From contig CM097883.1 of NCBI GenBank assembly GCA_044892505.1, positions 257,300,001 through 257,364,000 of the forward strand: DNA of 64,000 nucleotides. Direction: 5' to 3'. Origin of the DNA: Schmidtea nova. Taxonomy: Eukaryota. The notes under the pieces are model-generated. The model was not told the origin of the DNA. It saw only the letters and a program-made list of their open reading frames with translations, and did no database searches. Of the stretch, positions 5,435 through 64,000 are shown one piece after another (position 1 is the stretch's first letter; every line of letters starts with the position of its first letter). The translations under genes and the position numbers were made by a program.

Positions 5435-5515
5435 TTCACCTTTGATCTTTTTTTATTATTATTATCAATAATTCTCATAATGACTATAGATCAAAATTTT
5501 TTTTTATAAACAATA

Positions 5516-5548
5516 ACACAATATTTCGGCACAGCCTTTATCAAGTGT
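5516..5548 (-). ncRNA. Minimal type I hammerhead ribozyme motif, U3-A8 variant (inverted copy)
   Basis: Reverse complement of ACAC-TTGATAA-A-GGC TGT GCC-GAAA-TAT-T-GTGT. Confidence 0.65.
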
Positions 5549-5561
5549 GTATTTCAAATAC

Positions 5562-5594
5562 ACACTTGATAAAGGCTGTGCCGAAATATTGTGT
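5562..5594 (+). ncRNA. Minimal type I hammerhead ribozyme motif, U3-A8 variant
   Basis: Stem I ACAC/GTGT, core UUGAUAA, stem II GGC/GCC, GAAA, palindromic helix III AATATT, AUU cleavage triplet. Confidence 0.65.
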
Positions 5595-5653
5595 TATTGT
5601 TTATAAAAAAAAATTTTGATCTATAGTCATTATGAGAATTATTGATAATAATA

Positions 5654-5690
<37 letters not shown>

Positions 5691-7880: not shown

Positions 7881-9963
7881 CAATGAAACCTTGGATTGCG
7901 AGTATTTTGCAAGACGAGCAAATTTTTAAAATAAATTTTAACTTGATAATCGAGCTAAGTCTTGTATATGAGTAACATGTATGCGCATGTCTACCAATCG
8001 TCACGTTCGGTTTCAGTCAGTCAGTGTCTGTGTGCTTTATATATTTACTCAACATACGCACGAAGTATTGTTTATTTTCTTTCTAAACATGGTTAATGAG
8101 TATTCTTTGATAACAGTACTGTAACCATGACTCCCAAAAAGAAAACTGTTGAAAAAAAAGTGATAAGAAGAAAATGATTACGGTGGAAGTCATAAAGGAA
8201 ATCATTGAGAAGCACACATGAGGTATGCAAGTGGTTGACATCGAAAGATTTTATAATAAGTCTGCATCGACTATTTGCGCAATACTAAAGAAGAAAAAAG
8301 AATTAAGAGGGCTAGATGTAGCAAAAGGAGTCACATGACTATCAAAACAACAGCCATGTGTTCTGGAAGATGTAAAAAAAGTTGCTTTTCGTGTGGATAA
8401 ACGAGAAACAACTAGCAGGTGATGCTGTGATGGAAAACTGTATCTGTGAGAAAGCAAAGAATTTGTACGCCGACCTCATAAGTAAACTACCAGATACGTC
8501 CATAAGATACGAAGAAGGCTTCAAAGAGAGCAGGGGCTGGTTTGATAACTTTAAGAAGAGAAGTGGAATCCATAGTATTTGCAACACGGTGAAACTGCGA
8601 GTTTGGACGTTAAGGCAGCTGAGGTGTTCACCAACGGATTTTCGAAACTCTACTACAGCAAGTTTTTAACTGAGATGAAACAGAGCTTTTTTGGAAAAAA
8701 GATGCTAAAGAGGACTTACATTAATATAGAAGAGAATACAATGCCTGGTCACAAGCCCATGGAAGACCGTCTCACCCTCTTGTTTTGTGCTAATGCAAGC
8801 AGGGATTTTAAAATTAAGCCCTTGCTGGTGTATCATTCCGAGAATCCACGAGCCTTCAAAAAATGCAAGGTGCAGAAGATTCATTTAAAAATTATGTGGA
8901 GGTCCAACAGCAAAGCTTGGGTCACTCCTATCTTGTTCGTTGAGTGGACTAATAAGGTCTTCGGTCCTACAGTAAAAAAAATACCTTTTAGAAAATAATT
9001 TGCCACTCAAACGTTTGCTAATTATGGACAATGTCCCTGTTCATCCTCCAGGTCTCGAAAATGGCTTACTGGAGGAATTCGAGCTCATTAAGGTGAAGTT
9101 CCTTCCTCCCAATACCACTCCACTACTTCAGGACATGGATCAGCAAGTCATTTCAAACTTTAAAAGGCTATACACCAAAGCTTTATTTCAGTGATGCTTT
9201 GAGGTAACTGAAGGAACAATTTTTATCCTCCGAGAATTCTGGAAAAATCATTTGCACAGTGTGAACTGTCTCAAGATAATAAATAAAGCTTGGAATGGGG
9301 CGCCAAGAGAAAGCTGAATTCTGCTTGGAGAAAACTGTGAAATAACTGAGATAATTCTAGGAGGTAACTGTGAGGGGTTAGCTCTCGAAGAGGAATGCCA
9401 GTTCTCGATGAAATTGTCTTCTTGGGGAAGAACATGGGACTGGAAGTGAATGAGGTCGACATTCAAGAGTTGGTGGAGAAACATGGCCAGGAGCTGACTT
9501 TCGACAAGATAATAGATCTACATCGCGAGCAACAGCAAAGGTTTATGGAGGAGATCTGGTGTGAGAAATACAAGAAAAGGAGGAGGAATCACTCACTTCA
9601 AATTAAATTAAGAACATGTGGGAAATGTGGGAAACAGTCTAAAGTGTTGTAGAAAGACACTTTCGGGAAATTATAAAGAGAAGGCAGTAGCAAATGTCCC
9701 TTAATAGTTTCGTCGTTAGAGTTGCACAAAAAGTAAAAGATTCCAGTGTTCCAAACGCAAATTAATTGCATGTGTATTATTTTTATGAACCTATATGTAT
9801 TAAACATTTTATATAAACATTTTATTTGAATAAATATTTTGTTGTGGAACAAATAATTGGGGTTTTCATTATTTGCTATGAGTTATTCGCTTTGATATAC
9901 GAGTGCTTCTGATTACAAGTACGTTCCCGGAACGAATAAAGCTCGGTAACCGAGATACTACTG
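7881..9963 (+). mobile_element. pogo/Tigger (Tc1-mariner superfamily) DNA transposon, decayed
   Basis: TA-flanked ends CAATGAAACCTTGGATTGCGAG and CTCGGTAACCGAGATACTACTG (diverged TIRs) enclosing a Tigger-type transposase. Confidence 0.8.
8127..9652 (+). pseudogene. Tigger transposase (CENP-B-type HTH + DDE) with stops and frameshifts
   Basis: Fragments FKESRGWFDNFKKRSGIH, DRLTLLFCANAS, KIKPLLVYHSENPRAFK, NSKAWVT, LLIMDNVPVHP, FLPPNTTPLLQDMDQQVISNFKRLY. Confidence 0.9.
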
Positions 9964-15425: not shown

Positions 15426-16385
15426 TTTAATTATTATTTAATTTAATTTCAATTGTTTTAATTGGCAGTTAATGTTATAGATTAAATATTCAAAAACTTG
15501 TTAATTATTTTTACTACAATAAGATTCCAAAGAAAAAATAACACCGATTTCGAGAATAGATGAAGATAGATTGGCGAATAATTGTAGTTTAATAAGTGTT
15601 CATGATGTCAGTCTTTAGTGTTTTGGCTTTAAATTTTGATTCGTCTTTTGTAGTTTTTTGAATTTTTTTAAAAAGAAATATTTGACTTTGACCTTTGACC
15701 TTTGTACTTGAAATAAATTTTTAGTATTGTATCATCGAATATATAATCATAAATTTTTTGAGGTCGTCGAAAGAAAATTAAAGAATAGATAAAGATTTTA
15801 TGGTGGTTGCAATAAAATTGATGGTCACTTTATTTTGGTTATGACTAATCGATTATGTAAGTTTTTTTTGTTCGGGAGTCCACACTTATCCCTACTCTCA
15901 TATACCAAAAACTGCTTTTAAAGTAATGGTTCTCACCAATAGAGATTCTCTGGATAAGTTTGGAGATAATCATAAAAGAAGTTCGAATATTAAAATTAAA
16001 ACAAAGAAAATTAATTTATAAAAAGATGGCAAATGTATGTTACTAAATAATGCTTCAATAGGTGCATCTTCGTATAATACAGTATCGATAAATTAAGAGG
16101 AAAGGTTCTGATTTTTGAGGACAAGATCAGTTTCAAAAACATGATTTAATGCTTATAATGTAAAATATGGACACACGAGGTTTGTGGAGAATATCAAAAA
16201 CCTTAAAACTTTATTACTATCCTAATATACTTGATTTTTTCATAAATTTGCAAGTTCTTAAGTATTCAGGTTATATTACTTCAAAACCTAAAAAAGGTAC
16301 GATTTTGGAAACCAACCCCTTCAAATTACTACTACTGTTTTCCAAAATTGTACCTTTGGGTAAATTTCAAGGAGCGTGTATGTAA

Positions 16386-16442
16386 ACAAGAAACTTTTAC
16401 AAATGCATTGACTCAGTCAATGCATTTGTAAAAGTTTCTTGT
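16386..16442. repeat. Perfect palindrome, 28-bp arms, 1-nt spacer
   Basis: ACAAGAAACTTTTACAAATGCATTGACT-C-AGTCAATGCATTTGTAAAAGTTTCTTGT. Confidence 0.95.
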
Positions 16443-17334
16443 CGATTTGACTGTTTCAAATTGTTTAAATAAAATTTTTGGGGTTTAATAAAATAAGTTA
16501 AAATTCGAAAATAAAAAGCACAAAAACTTGATAGAAATTAATAAAAAAAGTATAAAATCTTAAAAGTAATAATTAAACCATGAAAATTAATGAAAATTTA
16601 GAAAATTAAAAAATATAGATTTAACGGATGAAATTGTTATGGGTGTATGCTGAATCGTGAGACGAATCCAAAAATGATAAAATAAAATTAAGGGGGGAGG
16701 GTTCCCCAGAAGAAAAGAATTTAAAATTTAATAAAGTAATTAAAAATTAATAGGCTAATGGAGAAACTGAGTAGCGTGGGAAGCCCGGATGATCAGCGAA
16801 ACATTTCATTATCTCCGAGTAAATTGGTTGTAAAGAATATCCGAAAACTAAATTGATGGAAGGGTAGTTTACAATTTCGTTATTAATAAATTAAATTAGG
16901 AAGTGTCAAATTGAGAGACGCCGCCGGACAGCTTGATCGGATAAGGAAAACCCATTTAACTGGGCTATATAAAAAGAAAGACAAATCCAAAATTTGCCAA
17001 AGTGTTTGAATAGAAAAAGTGAGTAAATAATTTCTAAGACGAAAGTTCGAGAATGTTTAGGAATTACAATCAAATTGATTCTTATTGGCGTATATTTAAA
17101 AGGAAATTTTCCTTTGGGAGACGTATACAGTCTTTATCAAATGTGTATTACTCAACATTTCTCTTTGTTAGTGTATGTTTTATTAATTGAGTTTTATTTT
17201 TAATTTATTTAAAGTTTTAATTATTGGGTGATTAGGCGTTTTCCTAAACGAATTTTTTTCTAAAGATAGAGTTATCATCAGAGGAAGGATGAGTCAAGAA
17301 GATAGTAGTAAACCCTTCGTCTACAAGTCTGACC

Positions 17335-17430
17335 TTTGCGATAAAGACTGTGTCGAAATATTGTGTACTTGTTTAAAGAAATTTTGATCTATAGTCTTAC
17401 CATTATGGGAATTATTGATATTAATATTAT
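17335..17430 (+). repeat. Diverged copy of the hammerhead-bearing short element
   Basis: GATAAAGACTGTGTCGAAATATTGTGT...TTTTGATCTATAGTC. Stem II reads GAC/GTC (compensatory to GGC/GCC); the first core positions and stem I are degenerate. Confidence 0.7.
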
Positions 17431-18377
17431 AAAAGATCAAAAGTGAAACAAAAAGATAATTATGTTAATATTAATTGTGCTTTTATTGTGCTTTTATTTT
17501 GCTTTTATTTTGCTTATTTATGGCTTTAATACTTGTCCCGACACATTTGATGAGAGTGGTTCAAATATTTTGATATTTGATGTCGTTTTGCAGTTAATTA
17601 ATATGATTCTGGGTCTGGTCTAAAAGTCACTTGGCTCGATTCTGAGTGGAATCAGGATTATTGCATGGTACTGACGAGAGTCAAACACGTCAACCATTAA
17701 AAGTCGCTTTGAATATCACTTGTAAAAAACGTTATAACAAATTTAAAATAACTCTTGAAAATAAAAGAAGAAAAAGGAAGTGCTAAAACTTTATATTAAA
17801 TAGGGAAATTATTTAATCTATTGTCTGAAAAACAATGAAAAATAACAAAATTGAAAGATCAACGGTAAACAAAATTGATAATTTTAATGGTAATAAAATA
17901 TATAGCTATTCAGATAAATACATTTTAGTATAATAATTATAAATTTTTATGTGTTTAATTCGAAAAAAATTAAAGTATATAAATAAATAAATAAAAATAA
18001 GGTTAAAAGTATACATTTTGATTGTCAAATAATGTCAAAAGATTAAATTTAAAATTTAAATTAAAACAAAAAAAATTGTTTAATTAATGGCTTATGTATG
18101 TTGAAGATTTGGAAAAAATCTAAAAAACGAAAGTTGTAAATTTTTAAAGAAAAATAAATGTATTTTAATGTTGGCTTATTCAATAGTAGAATAAAAAGAC
18201 AAATTGCTACTGAGTATGTACGTCAATCCACAAAGTTGACTGAATATTTTCGATCAAGCGGCGGGTCACTGTGACTAGTTTTGTTACTTTTTCCTATGTG
18301 ACTAATTGAGGATTAACAGACAATTAGTATTTGGAGTTTTAAATAAATTTTGCAATTCATCTGAAAACCCTATCAAA

Positions 18378-19103
18378 TAAGGTGACCATTTATATTTTTT
18401 TCTAAACGCGTACATTATAAAAATGAACTTTAATTTTTACCAAATAAACAAAAAAAGTTATTTTATTTCAATAAAATACTGATTCAAATCACATTTCAAG
18501 TACATATAAATTATATGTACTTGAAATGTGATTTGAATTCTTCTTTTATTTGTAAGATGAAGGGAAATTCCGTCTTCAATTTTTCATTAAATGTATTTAA
18601 TCGTCTCTTTTTAAATTTCTCTCTCATTTTATCTGCAACAAAAAATATTATTTATTAATGTACTTTTTTATCTTAAATTTTCATAAAAATTTCTCAAAAA
18701 ATAGAATATCGTCATACTTATAAAGCATATGCTAAAGTTATTTCAGCGTATACATTTCTATGCTATGTTGTAAAGCGATTTATTTATAGATTATAGATAA
18801 AAAAAACTTCCGCTGTATAGCCGCTATGAAAATTGGATACACATTCAGTAAAACAATATAGTATTCTATGCTTCAGTATATAAAAATGGGCGAATTGACC
18901 TGTGGGAAAATGCATACTTGTAAGCTGCATGGGTTTGTTTGCCCTTATTCAACAGTTATTCCAAATTTGAGAAAATATTTTTAAAAAATTTAAAATTTGT
19001 TTATTTTTTGAAAACGCGTACATTTCGCGAACAGTTTTCATACGCGTACAGTGGGTTGAAAACGCTTACTGTACGTGGTAAACGCTTACAAATGGTCACC
19101 TTA
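18378..19103. mobile_element. hAT-type MITE
   Basis: TIR TAAGGTGACCATTT / AAATGGTCACCTTA; exact 8-bp TSD CTATCAAA; subterminal ACGCGTAC repeats. Confidence 0.9.
18482..18538. repeat. Perfect palindrome, 28-bp arms, 1-nt spacer (inside the hAT MITE)
   Basis: ATTCAAATCACATTTCAAGTACATATAA-A-TTATATGTACTTGAAATGTGATTTGAAT. Confidence 0.95.
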
Positions 19104-19283: not shown

Positions 19284-20243
19284 TTAAAAAGTTGAAACAA
19301 ATTTTGCTTTCTTTCCGAGATTTTTGATTCCAATCGGTGATTTTTTAAAAATTATTATCAACTTTCTAAACCGCTTAAACAACACTAAATGTGACAATGG
19401 AGTTATAAATGTAACAGTTGCTAATAAATCGTTTAAGTAGTAATAAAAACAAATAACGTCAAAAGCAACAAGATCAAAATTATGTAACACATATCCGATC
19501 ATTTCAATTAATAATGTAAAACTGTAAAAAACGGTTGATATCAAAGTTATGAGTGAATATTTATAAAACACCAAACTTCTTTTCTTTACAATTCTCAAAT
19601 CTTGTGCAATCATAGAATTCTTGGAGTTTTTGTAGAGATCTCTAGCGGAAAATATTCCAAATATTGTTAGAGTGAATATTGGAATGGAATAGAAAGGGAT
19701 GATGTTGAAAAAGAGGCTTACGTTAGTAGACCGCCACCAGCATGAATATGAAACAGTTTCATTAAAATAATTCATTTCGACCCCATAATCAAATATTACA
19801 GAAAATATCTCAATGAAAAAGGAAAAAATCAAAACCATTATTACTAGCATCAAATTAATATTTCTACTAATGCATTTGTACTTCAACGGATAAACAATGC
19901 AAACGAACTGGTCAAACGCCGACAAAATCATCATATAAATATTAATGGTGAGAAATAAATAAAATAATTGCAAATCATACCAAATGTAGCAATGGAACAT
20001 TGCATAAATATAATTGCTGATTTCCGATTCTTTTAAAAAATTCATAAAATATAAAACTAAAACTACCAAGCAGACAAACGTTCTCGTTTTGTTCATAACC
20101 GTCGCATTGTGCGAGGAAATTTTATACTGAAATAGAAATATCAACAGTGATAAATTCAGGATAAAATAAAAACAAATTAGTGCACTTCTGAAACTAAAGA
20201 ATAAAACACTATCAAGACAAAAATCACCGAGGACGAATTTCAT
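19284..20243 (-). CDS. Divergent class A (rhodopsin-like) GPCR, single exon, 319 aa
   Basis: Intact ATG..TAA with about seven hydrophobic segments. TM3 end SAFDQFVCIVYPLKY aligns to the DRY..I..PL motif, TM3 and ECL2 cysteines are present, and there is a helix-8-like KRFRK. Confidence 0.85.
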   Translation of the reverse strand: MKFVLGDFCLDSVLFFSFRSALICFYFILNLSLLIFLFQYKISSHNATVMNKTRTFVCLVVLVLYFMNFLKESEISNYIYAMFHCYIWYDLQLFYLFLTINIYMMILSAFDQFVCIVYPLKYKCISRNINLMLVIMVLIFSFFIEIFSVIFDYGVEMNYFNETVSYSCWWRSTNVSLFFNIIPFYSIPIFTLTIFGIFSARDLYKNSKNSMIAQDLRIVKKRSLVFYKYSLITLISTVFYSFTLLIEMIGYVLHNFDLVAFDVICFYYYLNDLLATVTFITPLSHLVLFKRFRKLIIIFKKSPIGIKNLGKKAKFVSTF

Positions 20244-23234
20244 TCTCCCACTTACATGTGGAGTCGTGCTGTCCGCAACGACAGTTATATCCCAATGGCA
20301 ATTCCCAATTATCTGTAATTGGCTACTTGATTTTCGATAAAAGGAAAATATTCATCATTTAGTAAAGGATTCTCATGTTTTTCTTTTAATTAACAGAAAG
20401 CTTTTTGAATTCACAATGGAAATATAATTTCTGAAATTAATTATGATAAACATCGGTTAGAAAGAAAATTGTCTCGAATTCATTTGATTGCTGAGAACAA
20501 ATGGGAACTCTTTTTCTATCGGTAATTAAAAACATTTTTGCAGTTTCATGAGATGAAACTCATTTTCTACAACAGTTGATAATTATTGCAAAAATGTTCT
20601 CATTATTGCAACTTTTTTTCAGGAAAAAACACATAAAATCGTTTTAAAGAAACTGACATCATACTAACTTTTAAGACGCCAGCACTTTTATTCGTAATGT
20701 TGAGTTATTGGGTTGGTAGTGAAGTTTAAACGTCACCAATCAAATTTCTGACTCCGAATTCAAGCTTTATTAATCAATAGAACAACAATTATAACAGGAA
20801 TATTTATTGATATCACAACTGGTTTCACAATTAGACTGGCACACTCAATCAATAACCTGAGGCAATTATACAGTGCTTATTACAACACTTATGTAAGGAC
20901 TAGCACTCATGTATAACCTCTGTCTAACGATTATCGAACACTGATTTAGATTTAATAATGGGTAACCAACTACTTGTTTTCTTTGCTTTGACTTGAAATT
21001 CGGCTTAAAAACCATTCAATAGATTTCTCAATAATCAATTTCTCAATAAACTTCTCTCAATCAATTTCTTAATAATTTTTTTGTCATAAAACTTCTGTTG
21101 CGAATTCTCGTCATAATAATTCTCCACAAACTTTTGTCTAAAGCTGGTGTCTTTCCCTTTTTACAGTTTGCCATTCTCCTGCCCTTGTGATGATTTGCTT
21201 TTTTCCTCATTCCTGCCTCTGACATTGCCCCTTTTCATTTTTAGCTCCGGTGTTACTTATAGCCATCCGGTACTCGGGATAATTTGCTTTTTCCCTTTTT
21301 ATCACTGGCATTTCCCAAATTTTTCACAGTTTCCGTGTTATCTTAGACAGCTGTCAAGATACCGATTTTGTTTTCATTTTTTGTTTTTTTGTTTTCGAAT
21401 TTTGAAATTCAATTTTGTTTTTTTGAACTTATTAATTATAAGTGACCTTACTCTGTTTTATTATTTTATTTCTTTTATTTTGTTACCCTTTACTCATTTC
21501 TCAAATCTTTGCTTTTCCGTTTTCTTCTACAAGTTCCGGAATGCTAGCTCAATCACCTATCGGTTTTCCCCCAATTTATTCTAGTTATTTATAATATTAT
21601 TTATTATTTAGGTATCCTCAACAGTATACATTATGTGATCTTGCTTTATTAAGTTCTGTTAACAATCTACAGATTTATTTATAAATTAATTTTTTCTCAT
21701 AATTAAAGTAAATTAAAAAGTTAAAAAATAAATCTACAAATCGTTATAAGATTTTTAATATCGTAGAGTATACGAAAAAGTGCGGATGTGTTCAAGGTTA
21801 GTATGATGTCAATTCTTTTAATATATAATATACTTTGTGACATTATTTAGATTTTTGAATAAAAAACTACTTTAAGAGAATATACCAAGACAAATAAAAT
21901 AAAATATCCAAATTGATAGAGGAGGTCTCCATAACGCTATATATATTTTATGTAAATATATACAACTTAGAAAGATACAACGTTTCTCTTTCTTTTGTTT
22001 GTATTCTTAATCATGGGTAACAAATAAAATATTATAAAATAAACAACAAAAAAGCATCGATTTTTTAAAATTATAAATTAAATCGATAATAATTATATAT
22101 TTGTCTAAACTTTCCGGTTAAAATGGTGACCGGTTAAACGGGTTTATACTGCATTTGTTTTTGTATTCATTATTTATCAAAGTCACATAGCCTGTGAAGT
22201 TTCCGCAGTGTGTTTTGATCACTTTATCTATAAACCACAAATAAATAAATAAATTCCCAAAATAGAAATAATATCAGTATTAAATTACTAATTAGAAAAA
22301 TACCATAATATAATAAATTAGAAATAAATATTATTTATTTTGACATTTAATAGTCATACATAAGGTTGAGACTAAAAAACCCAAGAAAATCCTGTTGCCT
22401 ACATTTCGACAGTAGGGTCGAGACAGTAGATGAGTATAAAAACCAAATGTTGTAAAGAAGGATGTGATGTTTAAGAAAGATGAAAAAAGAAAAGTGGAGT
22501 ACAGAAAATGGAGTACAAAAAATGGAGTACGATTGAAATAAATACATTTTATGTAGAGATGCTATGGGATTCAGGAGATTCAATCAGGGTAATGAGTGAG
22601 AAATGTTGGAGATTGATAGGCAGTCCAACATTAATGATAAGCAAAATACGATTGAGTGCAGTATTTTCAAAAGAAGACGAGAAATTTCTCGGAAGCGTTA
22701 AAATCGTTGCAAAATGGAACAACCAATGTCGATAATTGAATGTTATTATTGTCAGAAAAATTCATCCAGATGTTGAGATTTACAGAATCTCAACTTGATT
22801 ATTTTATGTAAATAAATAAATCAACACTGGTTCAACAAATTTTATTTAATCAAAATAAATATAACAATTAATCAAATAAATAATATTACATCCACCAGTT
22901 TAATTATCTTTGTTTTTGTGTTTTATATGTTATAAATGTGATGTGTAGAGCTGAATGAGGCTCAGAGCTCAAACTACTGTATGCTCGATTTTAAATTTAC
23001 AATAGCTGATAACAACTATGAATTTCTTCTTAATCTAAGATTTTATGGGTGATAACTGAGAATTCACTCAGTTTATATAGTGAATTTTGGTTGATCTTCA
23101 TTTTAATTGAAAAGGGTTGTTATTTGTCAATAATGTCTGTTTTTAATCAACAATTTTTCTATTTTTAAAAGTTCAAAACAACAATTACTATATTTAGATT
23201 CTAAATATAGTAATTGTTCACTAGGAATGGATTT

Positions 23235-25211: not shown

Positions 25212-26160
25212 TATAATATGGCAAGGAAGAAAAAAATATTTTTCAAATTGAGCGCATTGATAATTAGGCATATTTGAAGGCTGGAATTTTATTTGATATT
25301 TAAAATTTCCTTCAAATTGTGGATATCAATGTAAGTAGTTATTATATAAATTCGATTCTATGAGATTTATGCTATTTGAAAATGGCATATTTCTAAAACC
25401 TGTCTAGATATGAATTAGTGAAATTTCTTTATAGACAATGTATATTATAAGAAAACATCTATAAATTTAACAAATAAAAGTGAATTAAAACTAAAAAAGT
25501 AACGAACTTAAGTTACCTGACAACAAAATTATCGGAATACTTTTACATAATAATAAAAATAGAATTATTTCCTATCTGTATACATCATTATCAAATGTAC
25601 CCTGACTACTGGCGACTTGTAAGTCTTTCAGGTAAGGCTTAAGTTTGAAGAAAATTGCAATTTTTAAAATTATCTTAATAAATAATAAATTTCATTTAAC
25701 GTTTTATGAAAATTAAGTAAATCCTCTCAAAAAAAAGATACCCAGATACTAGATAATTACATTACAGGCAATAGGTAATATTAGATACATAGAATGAAAC
25801 TAATGAAAATTAAAGACATTTATTTAACTACCTATGAATATGCATATTTTGCTGATACATTTAAAATAAATTTTTCTGCTATCCTAATTCTAATTCATAT
25901 TCAAAAACTCCTAATGACAATATCAATATGGAACACAAAGAGTACGAAAAATACATTTTTATTTCTAGCGATCGGGTATTTTGAAATATTTAGTTTAAAT
26001 TCATTAAAATTCAAAATTACTTATTATAACAATAAATAATTTTTATATATATTACTTATAATAATTAGTAAATAATCATACCACGTCACAACACCATTCA
26101 CATACCGAGTGAATTATAAATATTAGATTAAATTATGTTTTATTAATTAAATATACCTTG

Positions 26161-26261
26161 ATTAAATATACACACTTGATAAAGGCTGTGCCGAAATATT
26201 GTGTTATTGTTTATAAAAAAAAATTTTGATCTATAGTCATTATGAGAATTATTGATAATAA
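26161..26261 (+). mobile_element. 101-bp hammerhead-bearing retroposed insertion
   Basis: 13-bp direct repeat TAAATATACCTTG at 26148-26160 and 26262-26274; (TAA)n-like tail; body identical to 5560-5652. Confidence 0.75.
26172..26204 (+). ncRNA. Minimal hammerhead ribozyme motif, U3-A8 variant
   Basis: Identical to 5562-5594. Confidence 0.65.
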
Positions 26262-26348
26262 TAAATATACCTTGTTTCAAAATTTAAAATCAAATTGGTA
26301 AAAGTAAATAAATAAATAATTTTAATTAAAAACTATATATTTAATAAG

Positions 26349-29300
26349 TGTGCTTAATTTAATTATTATTATTGTTATTATTATATTTAATTATTGTTTA
26401 ATTTAATTTCAGTTGTTTTAATATTGATTGTATTTGAAATAGATTTTAAAATTTTAGAAGCAGTTGATGTTATATAATAAATATTCCAAAATTTGTTAAT
26501 TATTTTTACTTCAAGCTATCGCGGCCATCGATGGAAATTTTGAAATATCTGGAAAAATTCGATGGAACCGGCAATGTTGCAAGCTGGTTTGCTCAACTCA
26601 AATCAATTGTAAAGATGTTGAAGATAGAAACTATAGAAATTTTTATACCTATTCTTTTGAAAGGTGATACATATGTTGTCTACGAACATTTATCAGAAAA
26701 GGACAAGGCTAGTTTTGAGGCAATCGAGAATGCATTAGAAAAAGCTTTTTCTCCAAGTATGTTTTTATCATACGAAAAAATGAGAAATTGTAGATGGACT
26801 GGAGGATCAGTGGATGTATTTTTGGCCGATCTAAGATTTCATGCAAGAGTGAATGAGAACTCCGTTAGGAACGCTTTTGTCGTAGGACTACCTAAAGACG
26901 TGTCGAGATTGTTGCAGGCTACTCCAAAGATTGATACTATGCCAATGGAGGATATTGTTTAGATAACACGGGCAATAATAAATACGAGAGTTCAAGACAT
27001 TGAATGCATCAACGTTGTATATAACAAAGTAAAACGTTGTACTCATTGCGATAAGATTGAGCACTTAGCTGAACCTTGTTTTAAGAAGTTTGGTACAAGG
27101 TGTTGGTCTTGTAGCGGCACCAATCACATATCTAGAGTATATCCAAATAACAATTCAAAAAACGACAACGTGGTAACACTAACGCCGGTGTCTACTCCAT
27201 TGAACCAGTAATGGCGTTGCAAATAATCACAATTAATGTGGATGGGAGAGAGGCAAATGCTTTGATTGATTCCGGATGCTGAAGATCTGTTGTTTTGGCT
27301 TCGTTGGTAAGCAAACAGTTGAGAAGAACGGACGAGGTGATGATAGCAAATAGAACCTCTGTGTCGTGTTATTGTGATATATTGGTAAACTTGGTGATTA
27401 GAGGTATAGATTTACGAGTAAATTGTCTAGCTCTCGAAAACTTACCTTACAATATTGAGATGATCATGGGCATGGATATTATTGGAAGATTAGGAGGTGT
27501 CCTGATTAGTACAGATGGAGTCGATTTTCGAAAGAGAAGGTATGTGTGCTGAGTGATAAATGTGTCACTGGGGCAAGTTCTTCTCCGAGCGTCATCAATA
27601 TTATAGACGAAGATTTCGAAACTAGATTCGACAAGAAATGGGTTGTCAAATGGAAATGGAAGTCTGGATCAGCGATATTGTGGAACAAGATTGCTTGTTA
27701 TTAGATGGCATACGATTTTCAAGCACCGTTTGATGCAGAGATGAGGCGTTGGATAGAGAAAGGATGGCTTGTACCGGCCGAATCAAGAGTCGGTGGTGGA
27801 TCAGCTGAACAAGAATAAAGTTCGACCTGTTATGGATTTCCGAGAATTGAATAAGTTCGTCAAGAGTCACACTGAGCAAAGTGACGTGTGTGGAGAGTCA
27901 TTGAGACAATGGCGAAAGATGTGTAGAGATGTTATTATGCTCGACTTAAAGAATGCATATTTACAGTTGAATGTCGATGAAGAATGTTGGAAGTATCAAA
28001 AGGTATGCTATGACGATAAGTTTTACTATTTGACTAGACTGGGATTCGGGTTGAATGTAGCCCCAAAGATCATGTCTAGTGTTTTGAAAAAGGTGTTAAG
28101 TCTACGAAGTGACATTGCTGAAGCGACAGATAATTATATAGACGACATAATAGTAGACCAGTCATTAGTTTGCGTCTCGGATGTTATAAATCATTTGCAG
28201 AAATATGGGTTAGAAGTGAAAGATCCAGAGAAGTTCGATGATGCAAGAGTTTTAGGATTGCAAATAACAATGCGTAACATGGATTGGATTTGGACAAGAG
28301 GTAATGAGCTTCCTGTCTTGAAGAGTGGGCAGGAAGTGTCGAGACGTCAATTATTTTCAATTTGTGGTCAATTGCTCGGTCACTATCTAGTAGCAAATTG
28401 GTTGCGAGTTGCGTGCGGTTTCATAAAACGTCACAGTAGTGGAGAAAAATTGGATGATAAAATTGGGCAAATTGCGCAAAAGATGTTAACTGACACTATT
28501 GCTCGTGTTTCCAAAGACGACCCGGTGCGTGGCGAATGGCATGTGTCAGAACAACTTAACGGTGTTGTATGGTGTGACGCAAGTAGTTTGGCCTTGGGTG
28601 TTTGTTTGGAAATTGGAGGTCATGTAGTTGAAGATGCGTCCTGGTTGAGGAAGAAGATTGATGTATGTCATATTAATGTAGCCGAGCTAGATGCCGTTAT
28701 TAAAGGCATAAATGTAAGTCTAGCTTGAGGCCTGAAAGATATCTTAATAAAAACAGATTCAGCCACTGTGAAATGTTGGGTTACTTCTATATTGTCCAAT
28801 CAAGAAAGAGTACGTACACACGGAATATCAGAGATGTTAATTCAGGGGAGATTACAGATTATCAAGGAGTTGCAAACAAGTTTCAATTTAGCTCTTTCGA
28901 TAGAGTTAGTATCTACAGAGAGGAACAAAGCGGATATACTAACGAGAGTACCTAAGACGTGGTTGTACTTGGTAAAAGCTGTAACATCTGTAGTAATTAG
29001 AAGAATGGATGACTTAGTAAAGTCTCACAATGCTCATCATTTAGGCGTTGAAAGAACGTTGCATCTTGCTAAGAGAAAATTCCCAAATATTACTAAGAAA
29101 GACGTGCAAGATCCAGCACCGGTTACATCGAAGCACGGGAAGCTTGATGTCGAGGTAAATTGGAAGAGGATCGCGATTGACGTGACTCACTATAAGGATA
29201 AAAGGTATTTAACAATTATCGATTGTGAACCGAGTTGGTTTGCAATTTGGAGGGAGATAACTAGCGAGGAAGTTGGAGTTATAATTCGAAATTTTGAGCA

Positions 29301-30115
29301 GATTTTTAGGGAAAGAGGTTCACCAGTAGAAATACTCGTAGATAACGATACATCCTTTAGATCTGGAGTGATGAATTCGATGTGCAAGAAGGGGGGGGGG
29401 TTAGGCGCATGTTCAGATGTGCATATCGACCTGCTGTAAATGGGATAATCGAGCGGAACCATAGAACGATTAAGCGTATGGCAGCACGGTCTGGCGGAGA
29501 ACCATTGGATATGGTTTATTGGTACAATGTGGCGTTAAGAGACGATGTTGATGAGGACTTGTCTCATTCCGACCTAACGTTCAATAACGTATGGAGACAC
29601 CCAGATGAATTGGAAGATGTCTTGACGGATCCAGAAGGCGGGTTTACTGTGGAGAGGCGGTTTTTGTAAAACCTCCTGATGCAAGATGTACTTCTCGGTG
29701 GAATGAAGGAAGAGTGACAAAAGTAAATTCATCTACAAATTTTGAGATTGACGGTATGCCTCGTCATTTTTCCGACATAAGTAAAAAAGAGAATTCCACA
29801 GAGGACGAATTCCAAATGCAAGACACTACCGAGGTCGCAGAGTAAGAAGTTGACGATTCAGTGCGTAGAAGTATAAGAGTACGAAATCCGCCACGTTACT
29901 TGGATGACTATGAACTGACGAGCGATATTGATGACGACATCACGGGGAGATGTGCTTAATTTAATTATTATTATTGTTATTATTATATTTAATTATTGTT
30001 TAATTTAATTTCAGTTGTTTTAATATTGATTGTATTTGAAATAGATTTTAAAATTTTAGAAGCAGTTGATGTTATATAATAAATATTCCAAAATTTGTTA
30101 ATTATTTTTACTACA
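26349..30115 (+). mobile_element. Compact LTR retrotransposon copy 2 (same family as copy 1), 3767 bp, defective
   Basis: 165-bp LTRs at 26349-26513 and 29951-30115 (1 mismatch seen); TSD ATAAG; gag from 26531 and pol to ~29959 with many lesions. Confidence 0.95.
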
Positions 30116-31283
30116 ATAAGAATGCAATAAAATAAGCTTGAAATTGACATGTAATTTTGATTAATATCAATTTTTTTTATTTTAGAGTTTTATTTTAAAA
30201 ATATTAAGGTTAAACTTACACATACCCAAAAACTGGATAATCTTTGAACCAATCTACTATTTCATCAATATTATTGACATGTTTAAACATAGTGAACTAA
30301 GTTAATGAGTTCAAAAATTTTGTTGTTATCCGTTGCATAGCAACATTGGTACTGTAACAAATGGGTGGATATCCGCAAAAAGTGAGCTTCGGATAGGTCA
30401 GAACTATAATTGACCGAATATCGTGGTTGGTTCCAATGGCGACCGATAAAGGTACAATGCCAATTTTTATCTGTCCATATTTTATTCAAAACATTCATTG
30501 TAAATGGCTCAATCTATAGCCGAGAAATTAATATGATTAAACAAAATTATCATGAGAAATCATTGATTTAATTTCCTCTGGCTATTCAATTTGAGTTCGC
30601 CTTCCCTCGAAGTGTATTTGTAAAGCAAATATGTTATAATTTTAAAATTCCAATTTATGTCACTGCACAGTTACGGAGTTCAAAAATTTTCAATCATTCA
30701 AAAGAATATCTCGGGCATGTGTAGTTTGCGAGATGAATATAAAGAAGAAATAAGAGTACGTTACCTAATTATATTTTTTATAAACTTTATGTGAGATTTA
30801 TTTCTTCATTATCCTTGAGTTTTCAGAATTTTTACCAGAAATAATTAATTAATTTATAAAATATAAGATATTGGTAATCTTTTCAATTTGCAATAATTGT
30901 ATGATTTTTAAATCAACATTATATCATTATATCATTCCTGTTTGACATAGTAATCATAATGATAACTTCTTTAAAAATTAACAATACACAATAAATACAT
31001 AAAATTGTTGATAACTTTCTCGGCCTAAATTATTTTTTTAATATTCAATCAGGATCCCATTAATACTTTTATGCTCTTTAACATGGTAGTTTTATTCATA
31101 CACAACTTGCTAGAAAAATGGGAATGTATTATATTTGCAATCGAATGATAGAGTAATCCCTTACGTTAAAGATTTAAAAAAGATTTATTTACTAGGTAAA
31201 ACTAAAATAATACGAGACTTATTTATTATGTTAACATTTTGTTGAGAATTTAATAACTTCACGTTCTCGATACGCGGATATAG

Positions 31284-52247: not shown

Positions 52248-55042
52248 CGTATTCCGACAATCCGCCAACACGACAATCCAGCAAGTACGACAATTCGCCA
52301 AACGACAATCCGCCAACACTAAAAAATTGGCCAACGCTGACATTTATAAAAAATATATTTGTAGGTCATCATATTAAAATTAATTCACATGTACTTGTTT
52401 AAAAGTTTTTTTTGTCCTTTGTAGTACCGTAAAATTTGAAAACAGTTAACTAAGCTAGAAAACTCAAGTCCTTTGTTGTGTATAGCTCAATGGTAAAATT
52501 TATCTAATCAATTTTTGAAGAAAAAGATGATTAAAAAACCCAACAGAATTTGTTTTTATTAAAATTATTTATTTTATACTTTAACATTTTTAAACACAAA
52601 TTAATGAAATGAAAAACAAAAAACTGTTTGTAAATATATTGACAAATTGTTAAAATCACGTTGCATGGATTATTACGATATAGTTCATCTAATAACTTAT
52701 TCTGACAAATGCATAAATCCAAAAACTTCCTGAACATAGGCAAGTTTGTCACCTCATTGAGAATAGTTTTGACACAAATGAATGACGTTTTCATTGGTCC
52801 ATATGTACTGAGTGCTTTGCTTTTTCTTGTATTTTCCAACATGTATTTCATGAAGTTTTAATCGCTCAGCTTGTTCCAAACTTGCAGTTTAGTCAAAAAT
52901 TTCCACATTGTTGGATTCTATTGGCCCATCATGACTCTGAAACCATTGTGACAACCCTATAAAGAATTGTTGGTTCGTGGAAGTTGCGACAATGTTCTGT
53001 TATACATATTCCACTTTTCGATTGGAAAGTTTGGTGCAGTTCTTCTATTTCCACTTCTCAGGCGACTAATGTAAAAGTCTTCAAAATAATCTGTAATTTT
53101 TCGGTAGTTTTCATCGATGTCAAAGGTAATTTGCTCAAATGTTTCAACAACATCATCAATTGGTATGAAGGCAAGAGCACACAACGACTTGATTAACTTT
53201 CGAAATGATTTTTTTTCGACGTATTCTGTTGCCAAACCTTTAGCTTGAACATTTCTCCACATCGATTGACACAGATGAAAGAAACAAAAAGACAGTTCGG
53301 TGTCTGGCAGGGCTTCTTCAATGGCATTAGACAGTCCAAGCTCAAAATCCACCATAAAAGATTTTGGTGAAAAATTAAGATTGGGTTGATCAGGCAAACA
53401 GTTTTTCACCAAAGTCATTAGACGATCATATGTACATCCCTTCTTGTTTGGGAGAAGCACATATAGCAGAGGCATGGAGACGCCCATTACAATCCCATGA
53501 ATTGTGAGTAATTGGAAGTAGAGAGAAGGGGCAACATTGAAAGTTCCATCAGCAAACAGGTGTAGAGCAGTAAACATTTGAATTAAAAATGCTTGGGTTG
53601 CAAATCCAACAATTCTCTGTGGATCTTCTTTTCCCGTATCAAATGCAATCCAGTTTGTGTCATCGTTGTTCTTCAGAAACCGTTCTGGAACATCAAAGTC
53701 ACGTGTCTTAGGAGGATTGTTGTTGATAGGGTCACGATGCCGTTGAATATCTCTGGCAATTGAGGAGGATTTTGGCAATTGAGGAGGATTTTGGCACTTG
53801 AGACAGACTTTCTTCGTCAAGAGTCCGCAATTCACTATAAAGCTCTTTCGTAGATTTTTCAGATGTTTGTGCTTTTTGTTTGATTTGACTCCTCAGTTTT
53901 TTAACACTTATAATTGCTGGTTCTGGTTGATGAGAATGATGACCACTTTCTACAAATTCTCCAGATGTAGTTACTCGTAGTCGACCAGTGCACTTTCTTG
54001 TATAATAAAGTTGACATTTGTGATAAAAAATTGATCTGCTCTTGTTAATGTTGTCACAATAAAAAATGTTCGAGTTGCAGATTGGCATCAGTTTTCCCAT
54101 GTCCGAAACCAGGGTATCTAAACCTGCAACTTCATAAAGAGATGCTGGAACATTCAGCTTAAAGTTTGTTTTTACGACATCTGGTTTTGGTGCCAAATTG
54201 GAATTTGGTTGTGTCGGTAAGACTCTGTTCAACATTTCTCCAGTGTCAGTTTCTTCTTTGGTTAAAGTGATCTCCAATATAGAACTGACATCTTCATTCA
54301 TTAACAAAGTTGGTGGTATCCTTTGGAGATCTTGGTCAACTTGTGCTGAATTTAAATGTACATCAACTTGATTGATTTCACTGGACTGGTCCATGTAACC
54401 TTGAGCTCCTTTTCCTTTCTTTTGTCGCTTTTTTGCCGGAGATTGTTTTGGACTAAAGATCATTTTTGGTTTTCTTGTACGCTTAAAGGGAAGCGTATTA
54501 TCCATCTTTTTTAAATGAAAATGTTTTTGAAAAAATTATGGTGTGAAAACAACGTCGGAATAAAACTTTTAAAACTTGGTGTCTGTTCCGGTTCACTGTT
54601 CAATTGTAAATGTAATATTAATTTAAAACTATAACATTGCAGAATTGTTTAATTAAGTTTAAGTAATTTTAATATTAACTCGCAAAATGTTAATTAATTA
54701 TTTGTTGCAATTAAATTGAAAATTAATATTTACCTCTCAGCCAGTTAAATTGTTTAAATATTTAATTAAAATTTTATATTAAACAATTACTAGTTGATTC
54801 TTATCTTTCAGCGGAGAATTTATTATTAAAATTTTAAAAATATAATAAATTTAAAATGTATGTATGTTAAAACAAAAATTTATCGACTTTTTGGCAGATT
54901 GTCGCTTTGGCGGATTGTCGCTTTGGTGGATTGTCGCTTTGTACTATTTGGCGGATTGTCATTTGGCGAATTGTCGTTTGGCGGATTGTCGCCAGCCTAT
55001 TAATGATTTGGCGATTGTCGATTGGCGGATTGTCGTACAACC
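52248..55042 (-). mobile_element. Mutator/MULE DNA transposon
   Basis: Both ends are built of inverted tandem (CGACAATCCGCCAA)n repeats, with MULE transposase inside and 9-bp flanking duplications (swapped with the second copy). Confidence 0.9.
52700..54505 (-). pseudogene. MULE transposase (FLYWCH-like finger + MULE DDE domain)
   Basis: KCQLYYTRKCTGRL...HHSH; LFADGTFNVAP..FQLLTIH; FMVDFELG; FCFFHLCQSMW; RTNNSL*GCHN. Frameshift from a 19-bp tandem duplication (~53754-53791) plus a TAG at 52957. The 3' end is approximate. Confidence 0.9.
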
Positions 55043-58625: not shown

Positions 58626-60399
58626 CACCTATCCCCCGTTTTACACGGAAGATAGGTTCCTGAAAAAACCTATGTTAATCGAAAAATTTAAATTTTATAA
58701 GGAAAACCGTGTTAAACGAAAACAATCACAGAAATACTTTTTTAGTCATTTATTGAGCAACAATCAAATTCAGTAAAACATAAAAATAGCAGTTTAATCG
58801 CATAAAATATTGACAATAATTCATTTAAATTTCAAAAACAAAAATGTAACATAAAAACAATAAGAAATTCACAGGAAAATAATATGAATGTATGTACTAC
58901 ATACTAACATATTGTCTTAATAAGACTTAATTTAACTTAAATCGCTTTCACTATCACTTTCAACAATAAGTCTTCTTTTTCGAATTTGTATAATATCACT
59001 GTCATGGTCATCACTGGATAGTATTTCTTTTTTTGTGGATAATGTAGTACTGCATCTGAATCAGCAGATGCTTGCTCGCCTTTTAATTTTATATTATGCA
59101 AAGAATGCCTTTGCTTAAATCTTTGGAACCAACCATGACTTGCGTTAAAAGGCACCTTATTCGAAGAAGTAGACGGTAACCGATTCTCAATTTTTTCATA
59201 AATTTTTAAAGCCTTACTTGTTATGGCGTTGGTATCAATTGGAATACGTTTTTGATATTGGTCTTCAAGCCAAATCATTAATGCCTTTTCCATAGTTTCT
59301 ATTGCAACATTTCTTACATGTGACGTTGTACTCATGCTCGTACACATTCCAGCTGCTACACTTTTTCTGATCGAGTCTTCATTGTTTCTAATCGTGCGTA
59401 TTGTAGCTTCATTCATTGAGTAAAATCTAGCAACATCTACTACTCTTTCGTTATTGCCTAACCGGTCCAAAATTCCGATTTTTGTTTCTAAGGAAATAAC
59501 TTTTCTTTTCATATCCTTCTTTTTTGTTTTGTCCTTTGCCATGGTAAAACTAAAATTTTAAATAAATCAGAAGAATGTTAAAAGAGATAATTTTTATATA
59601 CCGAATGGTTTTATACTTACTAATTTTAAGCGATTTTTTAAACTTTTTTTAATTAAATTTAATAACATAGCAAAGTTTAAAAATATTTAATTCATTATTT
59701 GTCTAAAATTAAAACTTTTGAAAGAAATCCATATTTATTATTATAAACATTGAAATTTTAAACCAAAAAGTATAAAATTTATTCTATTTATGCCTATACA
59801 TATTTTATTTTCATAAAAAAATAATTATTCCACAACGGATAATTTTAATAGTTTAAATAATAAAATTAAATATCCTTCATACTTTTAATAAAATGTTTCA
59901 ATCAACATAAAATTATTCGACCGTAGCATGTTGATAGCACTGGTTTCCATTCTATTATAAAAGTTAAGCAACATTTGTTAAGGTTAGAGCTAACATGGGT
60001 GACCACTTACAAAAAAAAATTTTTAAAAAATATAAACTGAATAATATTACGATTAATCCAAATGAACATAAAATAAATTTACTGAAGTTTCAAATTAACA
60101 CAAATTAGTTTAATTTTTGCTTTAAATTTATATGGTTTAAGTTTTAATCGAATTGGTTTAAAATTAATACATTTAAAATTTTATAAAAATGATAAAAATA
60201 TTTTAAACTTTGCGAAGTTTTATTTTAGAACCATTTTTGGAACAGTCATATATATACAGCCCTCAAAAGTTTTAAATTTATTCTAAAACTTTTTACCGTG
60301 TACAAGTAATATCAAGAGTTCTCTTTTCGATTTTTTTTTGTAAACCGTGTAAAATCGAAAACGTGTTAATCGAGCACCGTGTAAAGCGGGGGATAGGTG
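58626..60399 (-). mobile_element. pogo/Tigger deletion derivative
   Basis: 23-bp TIR CACCTATCCCCCGTTTTACACGG (1 mismatch), TA on both sides. Confidence 0.9.
58937..59542 (-). CDS. Truncated Tigger transposase: DNA-binding HTH domains only, no DDE
   Basis: KRKVISLETKIGILDRL...ATIRTIRNN; EKALMIWLEDQ; FNASHGWFQRFKQRHSL..IKLKGEQASAD, then unrelated tail. Confidence 0.8.
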   Translation of the reverse strand: MAKDKTKKKDMKRKVISLETKIGILDRLGNNERVVDVARFYSMNEATIRTIRNNEDSIRKSVAAGMCTSMSTTSHVRNVAIETMEKALMIWLEDQYQKRIPIDTNAITSKALKIYEKIENRLPSTSSNKVPFNASHGWFQRFKQRHSLHNIKLKGEQASADSDAVLHYPQKKKYYPVMTMTVILYKFEKEDLLLKVIVKAI

Positions 60400-61082: not shown

Positions 61083-64000
61083 CAGTGGCGGATTTAGATT
61101 TTGGTGCGTGGGGGGCGACGAAAATTTTCAGGGGGCGCCACAAATTATGAAGATTGTACTACTCATTTTCCCGAGTACTGAGTGAATACTAATATTATTA
61201 TAAAGCATTAGATTCAGTAAATTTATTGATGTAACAAACCAACCAGTTTATTTATTAATTAAATTGCTTCCTGCGTGATTTCATTGAAGCAAAACGATTT
61301 ATAGTCGATTCAAAGTCAATGTTCTCAGCCAGTTCGCGTTCTATTGAAATTAATGCTAATCCAGACAGACGTTCGTTTGTCATTGTTGATCGCAAATAAT
61401 TTTTGATAATTTTCAGTCTACTGAAACTTCTTTCAGCAGTAGCAGATGTAACAGGAAGAGTCAAGTATATTTTATAGAGAATTACCAAATTGGGAAGTCC
61501 CGGCGCCATCTGTTTTTCAACCAAGAAAGGCAGCACCTCTTTAAGTTGTAGTTCACAAGATAGTAATGGGCGTATTGATGCATACACGTATTTGAAAGTA
61601 TCATATTCTAGGATTGCTTCTTCAATATTAATATCGTTTTTGTAAATGTTGCATTAATTTTGAAAAGATTCTTTATTTTCTTCTGATATTTGTGATGGAT
61701 CAAGACAGGAGAATAAAGCAACAGTGTTATGAAAATCATTAAAACGTTCATCTAGTTGTGTTACAAGTGTATCCAAGACAGTGAAATACGTTTCACATTT
61801 GAAACGTGTAGTTGGATCATCAACCCTTTCATCTCTGTTAAGTTCACCTGCCATGCGTTTCTTTTTTGCAACTCGCTTTTCTTTAAATTCTGTTTCAACA
61901 TCTGATGAAGAACAATTTTTGATAATAAATGATTTTACAGCAACATTTAGACTTTCAAAAGCTTTATCACTTCTCATATCAGCAAACTTATTTCTGGCAA
62001 CATAAATCAATTGTTTTGCAAACGCAATATCTATGTCCTTTCGTTGCAAATAGTTTGATAACACAAAGATATTATCTAACAGCTTTTGTAGAAATAGCAT
62101 CAGAAAAACAAAAGAATATTTTGTTATCAAAAAATAGATAGTCCCATAGCTTCTGCTCTGACACTTCCTTTGTGTTCTTTTGATTCCCCAAAATTTATAT
62201 CTTCTAGAGTAGATATAATAGCAGAGAATGATCCAACAACTGCATCAACTGCATGCTTTCGGCTTGCCCATCTTGTATCAGAAAGTCGTTTTAGAGTATC
62301 TACTGTCGATTTATATCGAGACTTCTGATGTTCTTCGAGAATATGTAGTCGTGGTAAACTTGATGTAAGGAAAGTATACAACTTTTCTGTTGTTCCAAAA
62401 AACAACTGAACATCACTGTTAAGAGACATTGCTTCAATAGTCACCAAATTCAATGCATGAGAACAACAGTGAACAAAGATGGCATTTGGTGAAAGTGTCT
62501 TTATCTTAGTTTGAAGACCATTTTTAATCCCAGACATCACAGAGGCACCATCATATGCCTGTCCTCTACAAAGTGTAAAGTTAATGTTTCGCTTTTGTAA
62601 CTCCGTTAATATTATATCAGAAAATGCTGCAGCATTACTGTTTTCCAACTTGTAGAAGCCTATAAATCGTTCAACAACTTGCCCTGATTTTAACACTAAT
62701 CTTAAAGAAACTGACATCTGATCAACTCTGGATATATCAATTGTTGAATCAACAATTAGAGAAAAGAATTGTGCAGACCTAACTTCATTATCAATATTTG
62801 CGGATAATTCAGAGGCAAGTGATTGAATTAGGTCATTTTGTACATTATGACATAAATAAAGTTCATTTTTCTTTTCAAACTTTAGATGATTGTCCAAAGT
62901 GGAATCATATTTAGCCAATAAAAATAGCAATTCTCGAAAATTTCCAATATAACTACTACTGTCAGAGCCAGAATGTTCTCTGTGTCCTCTGAATGGCAAA
63001 CCTTGTTTTGCTAAAAACAACGTTGCATCTACCTTGCGTTTCAAAATTTCTCTATTTTTTTCCACTTGATAACGCTCCTGACTGATCAAACCAGATATCA
63101 GTTTTATCATTTGAAATGCGATATTTAGCCAGCAAATATTGGCATATTGCACTTTGATGTTGATTGGAAGCTTCATGTTTAACGATTTTTTCCATGCATT
63201 TTTTCCAGTTATAAACTCCAAAATTTGGATCGGACCATTCCTTGCTATAATTTTCAGTTTTACAATCAGCGAATAACCAGCAAGCTTGGCAATGCATTTT
63301 TTGATTTGTTGGTGAATAGACAAGCCAATTTCTTTCCTCCTTCATACTACCTTTTCCAAAACATTTTGTGTACCAAGAAATTTGAAACTTGCGCCCCAAT
63401 TCATCTGTCGATAATTGAAATGGTTCATTGAGTCCAAGTTGACATGGTCCGATTTCAAACAATTTTCGTATCAGTTTCCCACTATTAGTGGGTCTAAATA
63501 GATACAAAGTAATACTATTTAGTCTAGATACGAAAGATTTTTTCAACGGGCTTTAAAAAGCACGCGGGATCTCAGGAGATTAACAATTATAATTGTTGAA
63601 GCAAGGATTGCAATATCTGTATTACGCTATGGGCAAATCAGGCAAATAGTTTAGTATTTCTTGAAATCAGTGCATTGAATTTGAATACTCATTTGAATAC
63701 TCATATCATATTTATAAGACATTAGTTTCCCATACATTGTACTAATTAAAATTGCATCAGTAGTCGAGAAGATTGATACTTGATATTTACTGTAAAAATT
63801 TTTAATTTTTAATAATTTTTTTATTTAAGGTACCCTTTATCCAAAGTATTGTAATGAATCGAAGAACAATATTAACTCTCACAATACTAAGAGAAAATAT
63901 TATAAATTGGAGCATTGTGGACAAAGATATTACATTTGTTCAACATGTCAATCATGTGAATCGATATCCTATACTGAATTTTATGATTGTCATAGTGAAC
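61083..64000 (-). mobile_element. hAT transposon (ZMYM1-like transposase type); other end not seen in the window
   Basis: Terminus CAGTGGCGGATTTAG at 61083 (nearly the same TIR as 2330-3888) with GC-rich subterminal motifs. Confidence 0.8.
61255..63546 (-). pseudogene. hAT transposase in four frameshifted fragments
   Basis: RNWLVYSPT..HCQACWLF; FLAKQGLPFRGH; FFSLIVDSTID; RGQAYDGASVMSG; FVHCCSHALNL; LKRLSDTRWASR; LTLPVTSATAERSFSRLKIIKNYLRSTM. Confidence 0.95.

Follow-up and report, generated by a model that had tools for sequence, protein, structure and literature searches.

A pseudo-LTR stub of an autonomous Penelope-like element in Schmidtea nova and what the ends of its genomic copies suggest about priming and hammerhead cleavage

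Introduction

What is the 101-bp insertion at 26161-26261 of the 64,000-nucleotide stretch of Schmidtea nova DNA analysed here (the window), and how did it arise? The original prediction took it for a hammerhead ribozyme plus tail that moves as an independent, tiny non-autonomous retroposon or retrozyme, possibly through circular RNA. The U3-A8 hammerhead variant is known from schistosome Penelope-like elements (PLEs), mostly as single motifs, and the same source (PMC4209133) describes minimal PLE hammerheads as poor cleavers in vitro and offers no in vivo evidence that they cleave. Inverted pseudo-LTRs (pLTRs) with a one-sided tail are likewise known in PLEs (PMC8557442, PMC3846280). The insert itself proves to be nothing unusual: it is a stub of a Penelope pLTR, and its hammerhead variant has been known since 2014. 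The value of the locus lies in the statistics of its family rather than in the insert as an object. That family bears on cutting by minimal PLE hammerheads in vivo, which was not detected in the RNA-seq presented in PMC11167929, and on the origin of the inverted pLTR and its one-sided tail, which PMC8557442 calls undefined.

Results

The insert is a pLTR stub of an autonomous Penelope-like element

Signed coordinates below are relative to window position 26177, which is 0 and the first base of a 27-nt search core; the predicted hammerhead cut lies between +23 and +24, i.e. at 26200/26201. Inspection of the sequence confirmed 101 bp at 26161-26261 bounded by exact 13-bp direct repeats at 26148-26160 and 26262-26274 (both on the + strand), but only 26168-26264 (+; -9 to +87, no tail) matches the parent element described below. 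The 7 nt at 26161-26167 (+) are junction filler, absent from the parent and resembling the adjoining target sequence, and on the 3' side 3 nt are common to element and target, the first 3 nt of the right repeat matching the element as well. What had been read as a TAA-repeat tail is coding sequence: the ATG of the parent ORF lies at +65 (26242), its first codons (MRIIDNN) occupy 26242-26264 (+), and the "tail" is codons 5-7, GAT AAT AAT.

The parent was located by way of same-strand cores spaced 2,767 bp apart and by fetching those loci. It repeats in tandem in units of 2,767 bp and has an intact ORF of 865 aa (locus L092), the ORF being flanked by cores 2,767 bp apart, and arrays of up to 4-5 units were listed. 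In a Pfam scan the ORF matched RVT_1 at E=1.3e-7, and the ORF itself gave no Pfam match to GIY-YIG; a GIY-YIG-type endonuclease is supported by a C-terminal VY-x-CxxC-x-YIGET-R motif and by the domains of close homologues, which carry PF00078 and PF26215 and in some cases also PF01541. Judged by these domains and motifs, the parent is an autonomous Penelope-like element with a reverse transcriptase (RT) plus GIY-YIG-type ORF. The original prediction had rightly anticipated a Penelope-type RT and recent activity. Parent ORFs in the genome are intact and near-identical. A tblastn search with the parent ORF found no coding copy within the window. Rotifer Penelope elements share this build, with a pLTR that overlaps the first codons (PMC3846280). 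Open frames adjoin Penelope copies at two further loci (L091:3-1405 and L096); by eye they resemble a family B DNA polymerase.

Exact 27-nt cores number 41,763 in this 1.25-Gb AT-rich genome (control 0), a count that is a lower bound, matching being exact, and in which the two arms of one pair are counted separately. About three quarters of the cores are pLTR-only stubs like the insert, because the parent's upstream sequence continues for 25 nt beyond just 10,785 of the 41,763 (26%; control 0), and 985 pLTR-ORF junctions occur genome-wide by exact patterns (control 0). Copies are located mostly in (TAA)n or (TA)n, and their 3' ends fall at one of two fixed positions, near +88 or near +124; the extra 36-nt tail of the many copies that have it is the next twelve codons of the parent ORF. 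Being without sequence beyond the tail, the stubs are probably dead on arrival.

A search of the window that allowed up to 3 mismatches located the 27-nt core at 4 places, and the same search of 100 shuffles located it at none. The stub at 26168-26264 is solo, without a partner arm; its 97 nt agree at every position (100%) with each arm of a head-to-head pair near 5.5 kb. This pair had been noted as identical inverted copies at 5454-5656, and the identity stands; the pair, however, reaches at least to 5435, and its minus arm (5435-5555; -12 to at least +108, with an N stretch beyond) is tailed, the untailed plus arm (5556-5655) running from -11 to +88 and then into (TTA)n. A diverged copy predicted at 17335-17430 also exists, but it spans about 17340-17471 (+), carries the tail and is a solo stub in decay that belongs to an older subfamily. 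It starts inside the core, so that positions 3-4 of the core and the 5' helix I strand are missing and the hammerhead is incomplete. The fainter copy proposed at 17541-17570 did not hold up, since it has neither GAAA box nor helix I and matches neither the hammerhead descriptor nor the parent.

The left 13-bp repeat is a probable target-site duplication, and a target duplication at the insert is plausible; PMC3846280 gives target duplications of 8-10 bp for rotifer Penelope elements. Such repeats do not appear to be a hallmark of the family: of 22 other solo copies 2 have a comparable flanking repeat, the figure for mismatched flanks being 4 of 462, and many solo copies sit in microsatellites, where a flanking duplication cannot be called. 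The 64-kb window holds no empty-site paralogue of the insert, and no joint among those listed from four contig sets skips it, which does not imply the absence of such an allele. As a side observation, a few contigs (runs X1 and X3) join the base before the predicted cut (26200) back to the stub start (26168), some with a few letters between; either a copy that has its end at the cut or the insertion of a new copy into an older one could account for them.

The stub carries a predicted minimal type I hammerhead

Fold prediction and the descriptor place a minimal type I hammerhead at 26172-26204 (+). Its predicted parts are helix I (26172-26175 with 26201-26204), the core U3-A9 (26176-26182), an unpaired A (26183), helix II (26184-26192), G12-A14 (26193-26195), the palindromic helix III (26196-26199) and U17 (26200); positions 3 and 8 are paired, helices I and II are present, one base before helix II is unpaired, helix III is palindromic and an NUH triplet stands at the cut. 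The NUH rule permits U or C at position 17, and AUU is a weak cleavage triplet; the older subfamily has C in place of U at this position (1,905 matches, control 1). The descriptor matched only the three young copies in the window, and 100 mononucleotide shuffles gave 3 matches in total. Scanned against Rfam, the window gave no hammerhead but just sub-threshold hairpins, and the insert folded alone is unremarkable (z=-0.39). In a predicted dimer fold helix III would pair in trans.

A metagenome scan yielded 6 related loci, two of which (L286 and L291) have a hammerhead downstream of the ORF; among the other four, two do not include the pLTR region and L289 and L290 gave no descriptor match. L286 has a C3-G8 core in the same build; in its helix I a G-C pair takes the place of A-U, one pair of its helix II is swapped, and its helix III is formed by another palindrome. 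L291 likewise has a C3-G8 core. The descriptor match and this covariation bear out the predicted U3-A8 minimal type I hammerhead with palindromic helix III, and the cut at 26200/26201, as a predicted position, fits the descriptor. Covariation thus exists across elements, where helices I and II of L286 are compensatory, but not within the family: GAC in stem II occurs in 573 copies, with GTC as well in only 8 of the first 100 listed (tallied by eye), so that the GAC/GTC stem II at 17335, offered as compensatory, is no lineage trait and mostly decay, and stem II covariation within the family was rejected. At L291:1500-2100 two hammerhead-like repeats lie about 190 nt apart after the ORF, the first of them degenerate.

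Most copies begin just upstream of the hammerhead

The 5' ends of copies were sampled in the first 3 Mb of contig C1, where 121 arms were scored, 90 of them in 45 head-to-head pairs. Most stubs start 0-13 nt upstream of the core and a minority at the predicted cut: 74 arms start at -13 to +2, 26 run at least 60 nt upstream, 17 start at +25 or later and 4 lie between, and not one of the 121 starts between -14 and -59.

What sets the boundary near -12? A rod-like fold is predicted for the parent's stretch from -30 to +180 (z=-5.1). Within it the hammerhead core would pair with ORF sequence, i.e. the ribozyme would be masked. The rod would be closed by a helix of -21 to -12 with +158 to +167, predicted to be paired in young and old copies alike. 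Thirty copies that include both arms of this helix comprise 24 of young type, 2 of old type, 4 mismatched and 0 of the reverse combination, so the helix draws modest support from a single compensatory change in the copies compared. The downstream half of this change is non-synonymous, at codon 31 of the L092 ORF (Gln in older copies, Leu in young). Both helix arms are found in 758 copies as against 985 ORF junctions, the two counts resting on different exact patterns. ORF-linked pLTRs mostly read through -12 and terminal pLTRs mostly stop there; this fits a helix barrier, because an RT coming from the ORF has already copied the downstream arm.

The boundary might instead be the transcription start of an internal pLTR promoter, the stubs being run-off copies of an mRNA 5' end, a reading that would replace the helix-barrier step and leave the remainder of the explanation given below as it is. 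The stop at -13 is as sharp as a start site would make it, and PLE pLTRs contain promoters with downstream elements, according to PMC2377424. On the other side, the passage of most ORF-linked pLTRs beyond -12 is unexpected under a dominant start there, and the predicted closing helix begins exactly at -12. We regard a transcription start as a serious though somewhat doubtful alternative, and lean slightly towards the modelled closing helix as the cause of the boundary. A trans-spliced leader or an intron at -12 was also considered and rejected, no shared upstream sequence being seen at the junctions.

A smaller class of copies begins at the predicted cut

Ends around the cut were tallied in one run-length lineage. 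In it 897 copies depart from the reference at +24, and a further count gave 493 that agree with it as far as +24 and depart at +16; the samples scored come from the first part of contig C1. Among the first 100 of the 493, 26 point or indel mutants were set aside by eye and the other 74 were scored by script as truncated ends: 22 at +24, 11 at +23, 7 at +22, 5 at +21, 4 at +20, 6 at +19, 6 at +18 and 13 at +17. Exactly on +24, then, fall 22 of the 74 ends in this 8-nt interval (+17 to +24). By eye, the first 100 of the 897 contain 15 mutants and 85 ends at +25 to +32, mostly +25 (23) and +27 (26). After scaling, ends per position come to about 113 over +24 to +31 against about 34 over +17 to +22, figures that rest partly on by-eye tallies.

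Partner arms obey the same limit. Of 28 arms ending at +24 or +23, 24 have a partner that begins at +23 or further downstream (three of the 28 cut-site pairs being counted from both sides), as against 2 of 22 for arms ending at +21 to +17 (Fisher p=6e-8). Five of the 22 ends at +24 have no partner arm, 4 of these directly abutting a microsatellite, and a blunt +24/+24 pair exists. Since ends fall at +24 and partners stop there too, the simplest reading is that insertions of this class were copied from RNA that had already been cut, and the ends at the cut, to judge from where they fall, are likely a record of hammerhead cleavage in vivo.

The excess at +24 could also be due to RT pausing at helix I, to microhomology or to a second start site, with no cleavage involved. 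Many ends do lie at +25 to +29 by eye, the two helix I strands provide a microhomology that could explain 3 of the 33 ends at +24 and +23, the predicted fold masks the core, and RNA-seq of the Anolis element yielded no reads ending at its cut in the data set out in PMC11167929. We nevertheless think this unlikely: the upstream edge of the class coincides with the scissile bond, both arms obey it, solo copies and the blunt pair occur, and the step in end density lies at the same place.

Arms of head-to-head pairs differ in their 3' ends

Exactly one arm is tailed in 42 of 43 terminal pairs (p=5e-12), and in a second sample 56 of 57 listed arms fall in one-tail pairs, some pairs being seen from both sides. 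The tailed arm is sometimes the longer and sometimes the shorter, as in pairs of 448/1,154 and 2,523/661 nt. In 5' class the arms agree: the 45 pairs of the C1 sample divide into 32 boundary/boundary, 5 long/long, 5 cut/cut and 3 with an intermediate arm, with none mixing the three main classes, and in larger listings mixed pairs amount to 3 of 28 at the cut and 7 of 22 beyond it. Arms are identical over the variable stretch in 15 of 37 pairs, compared with 64 of 1,332 (4.8%) cross-pair comparisons, and a lineage variant present in 836 copies is found on both arms of many pairs. The 22 of 37 pairs whose arms differ do so mostly by run slips, and at least one of them looks like two subfamilies; the likeness of arms could also come from gene conversion. 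Junctions differ from copy to copy and often hold filler copied from either arm.

Two 3' ends, one per arm, recall PAc, a Penelope-like element of Anolis, for which PMC11167929 reports priming at two internal sites that bound the tail, together with an ATT cut on both strands. A different route to such pairs is fold-back or self-priming of one strand, for instance on an antisense template, as proposed for rotifer Penelope elements (PMC3846280), and it would also give the two arms shared variants and a shared class. It looks improbable here, where it varies from pair to pair whether the tailed or the untailed arm is the longer, the junction filler is often copied from either arm, and the 3' ends correspond to two priming sites like those of the Anolis element (PMC11167929).

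Origin of the insert

With two primings as the preferred source of the pairs, the following course of events can be proposed. The endonuclease would nick both strands of the target, and from each nick cDNA synthesis would start at one of the two internal sites, with a single RNA, or two RNAs derived from one source, as template. Microhomology and filler would then serve to join the cDNA ends head to head. Where just one of the arms became fixed, the outcome would be a solo stub like the insert. The template would set three classes of 5' end: long read-through, ends at the boundary from -13 to 0, and ends at +24, the hammerhead cut, these last from a minority of templates already cleaved. The long rod fold is predicted to mask the hammerhead.

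We hold with good confidence that the insert is a stub of an autonomous Penelope-like pLTR, likely formed by internal RT priming and a stop just upstream of the hammerhead. The wider proposition, that the stubs are a base-resolved fossil record of two-site priming, of a helix that masks the ribozyme and stops copying at -12, and of an AUU hammerhead cleaving about a tenth of templates in vivo, is one for which we see an even balance of belief and doubt. The insert spans the cut site and was likely copied from uncut RNA; a circle is not required for this, given that in PAc, the one PLE studied in vitro, it is mainly uncut RNA that serves as template (PMC11167929).

Finally, an independent element of about 100-140 nt that is transcribed, cleaves itself, circularises and is re-inserted by the Penelope RT, as first suggested, is very improbable: about three quarters of the cores do lack the parent's upstream sequence, 5' ends do cluster and animal retrozymes have been proposed to derive from pLTRs (bioRxiv 10.64898/2026.07.22.740005), yet the sequence is nothing other than the parent's pLTR with the first codons of its ORF, a 2% lineage variant occurs in stubs as well as in long and in ORF-linked copies, no short head-to-tail arrays were seen among 99 cores and 121 arms from the first 3 Mb of C1, and junctions vary between copies.

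Comparison with known elements

The family has the traits of endonuclease-bearing (EN+) PLEs, namely a single ORF with RT and C-terminal GIY-YIG, tandem pLTRs, and an inverted 5'-truncated copy with a tail of 30-40 bp at one end. It resembles the EN+ elements described in PMC3846280 and PMC8557442 in its single RT-endonuclease ORF, partial tandems and pLTR over the first codons, in the one-ended tail (36 nt here), and in AT-rich or microsatellite targets with occasional short duplications. Unlike those elements as described there, it has a very high copy number with some three quarters of copies consisting of the pLTR alone, and its copies are numerous enough to resolve classes of 5' ends at base level.

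The hammerhead is closest in build to the minimal hammerheads of metazoan PLEs, including the U3-A8 variant of the Cercyon elements of Schistosoma mansoni (PMC4209133). It shares with them U3-A8, the unpaired base before helix II, G10.1-C11.1, a 4-bp helix I, a loopless palindromic helix III and an occurrence mostly as single motifs or opposite-strand pairs. Helix II has 3 bp here rather than the 7-8 bp given there and the copies here are nearly invariant, and the genomic excess of ends at the cut sets the present family apart from what that source reports.

PAc (Poseidon, Anolis carolinensis) is similar in its two internal RT start sites, ATT-type double-strand cuts and use of uncut RNA as the main template, as PMC11167929 describes it. 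There, no difference between strands was seen in vitro, whereas in 42 of 43 pairs of the present family each arm uses a different site; both start sites are AUA-rich here, and the ATG follows the hammerhead instead of lying within it. PLEs of the Hydra clade agree (PMC8557442) in a length below 3 kb, DKT, a CxCx5C linker, (TA)n-type targets and a hammerhead. The clade's diagnosis as stated in that text is absence of CCHH and presence of RWK; the present ORF, by contrast, keeps CQKC between GIY and YIG with histidines after it (CCHH-like) and has no RWK, and membership was rejected. Animal non-LTR retrozymes (bioRxiv 10.64898/2026.07.22.740005) are alike in their type I hammerhead, pLTR ancestry and dispersed monomers, but no short head-to-tail arrays were seen here and the unit holds the start of a live ORF.

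In the open-access literature we found no paper that uses the 5' ends of copies as evidence of PLE hammerhead cleavage, and none on two-site priming per PLE insertion. Given intact, near-identical ORFs, the base-level predictions on cleavage and two-site priming could be put to the published in vitro assay, so that in vivo cleavage and two-site priming become directly testable.

Other features of the window

A 355-codon open frame at 19284-20351 (-) is multi-pass membrane receptor-like by eye and has no Pfam match at E 0.001, and 59913-60031 gives a weak full-length 5S rRNA match of 29.8 of 38 bits, below the gathering score. Near-perfect short palindromes at 16384-16444 and 18481-18539 have sub-threshold matches to Rfam microRNA families and are unrelated to the Penelope stub by BLAST. 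DNA-transposon remnants lie at 8576-8998, 52957-53892, 58937-59557 and 62127-63341, with DDE_1, MULE, HTH_Tnp_Tc5 and DUF4371 matches. Starting 75 bp after the insert region, an LTR-retrotransposon-like element extends over 26349-30116; its 166-bp terminal repeats (26349-26514 and 29951-30116) are 99.4% identical, it contains an ORF with RT plus DUF7047, and broken relatives of it lie at about 11.8-15.5 kb and 31.4-34.9 kb.
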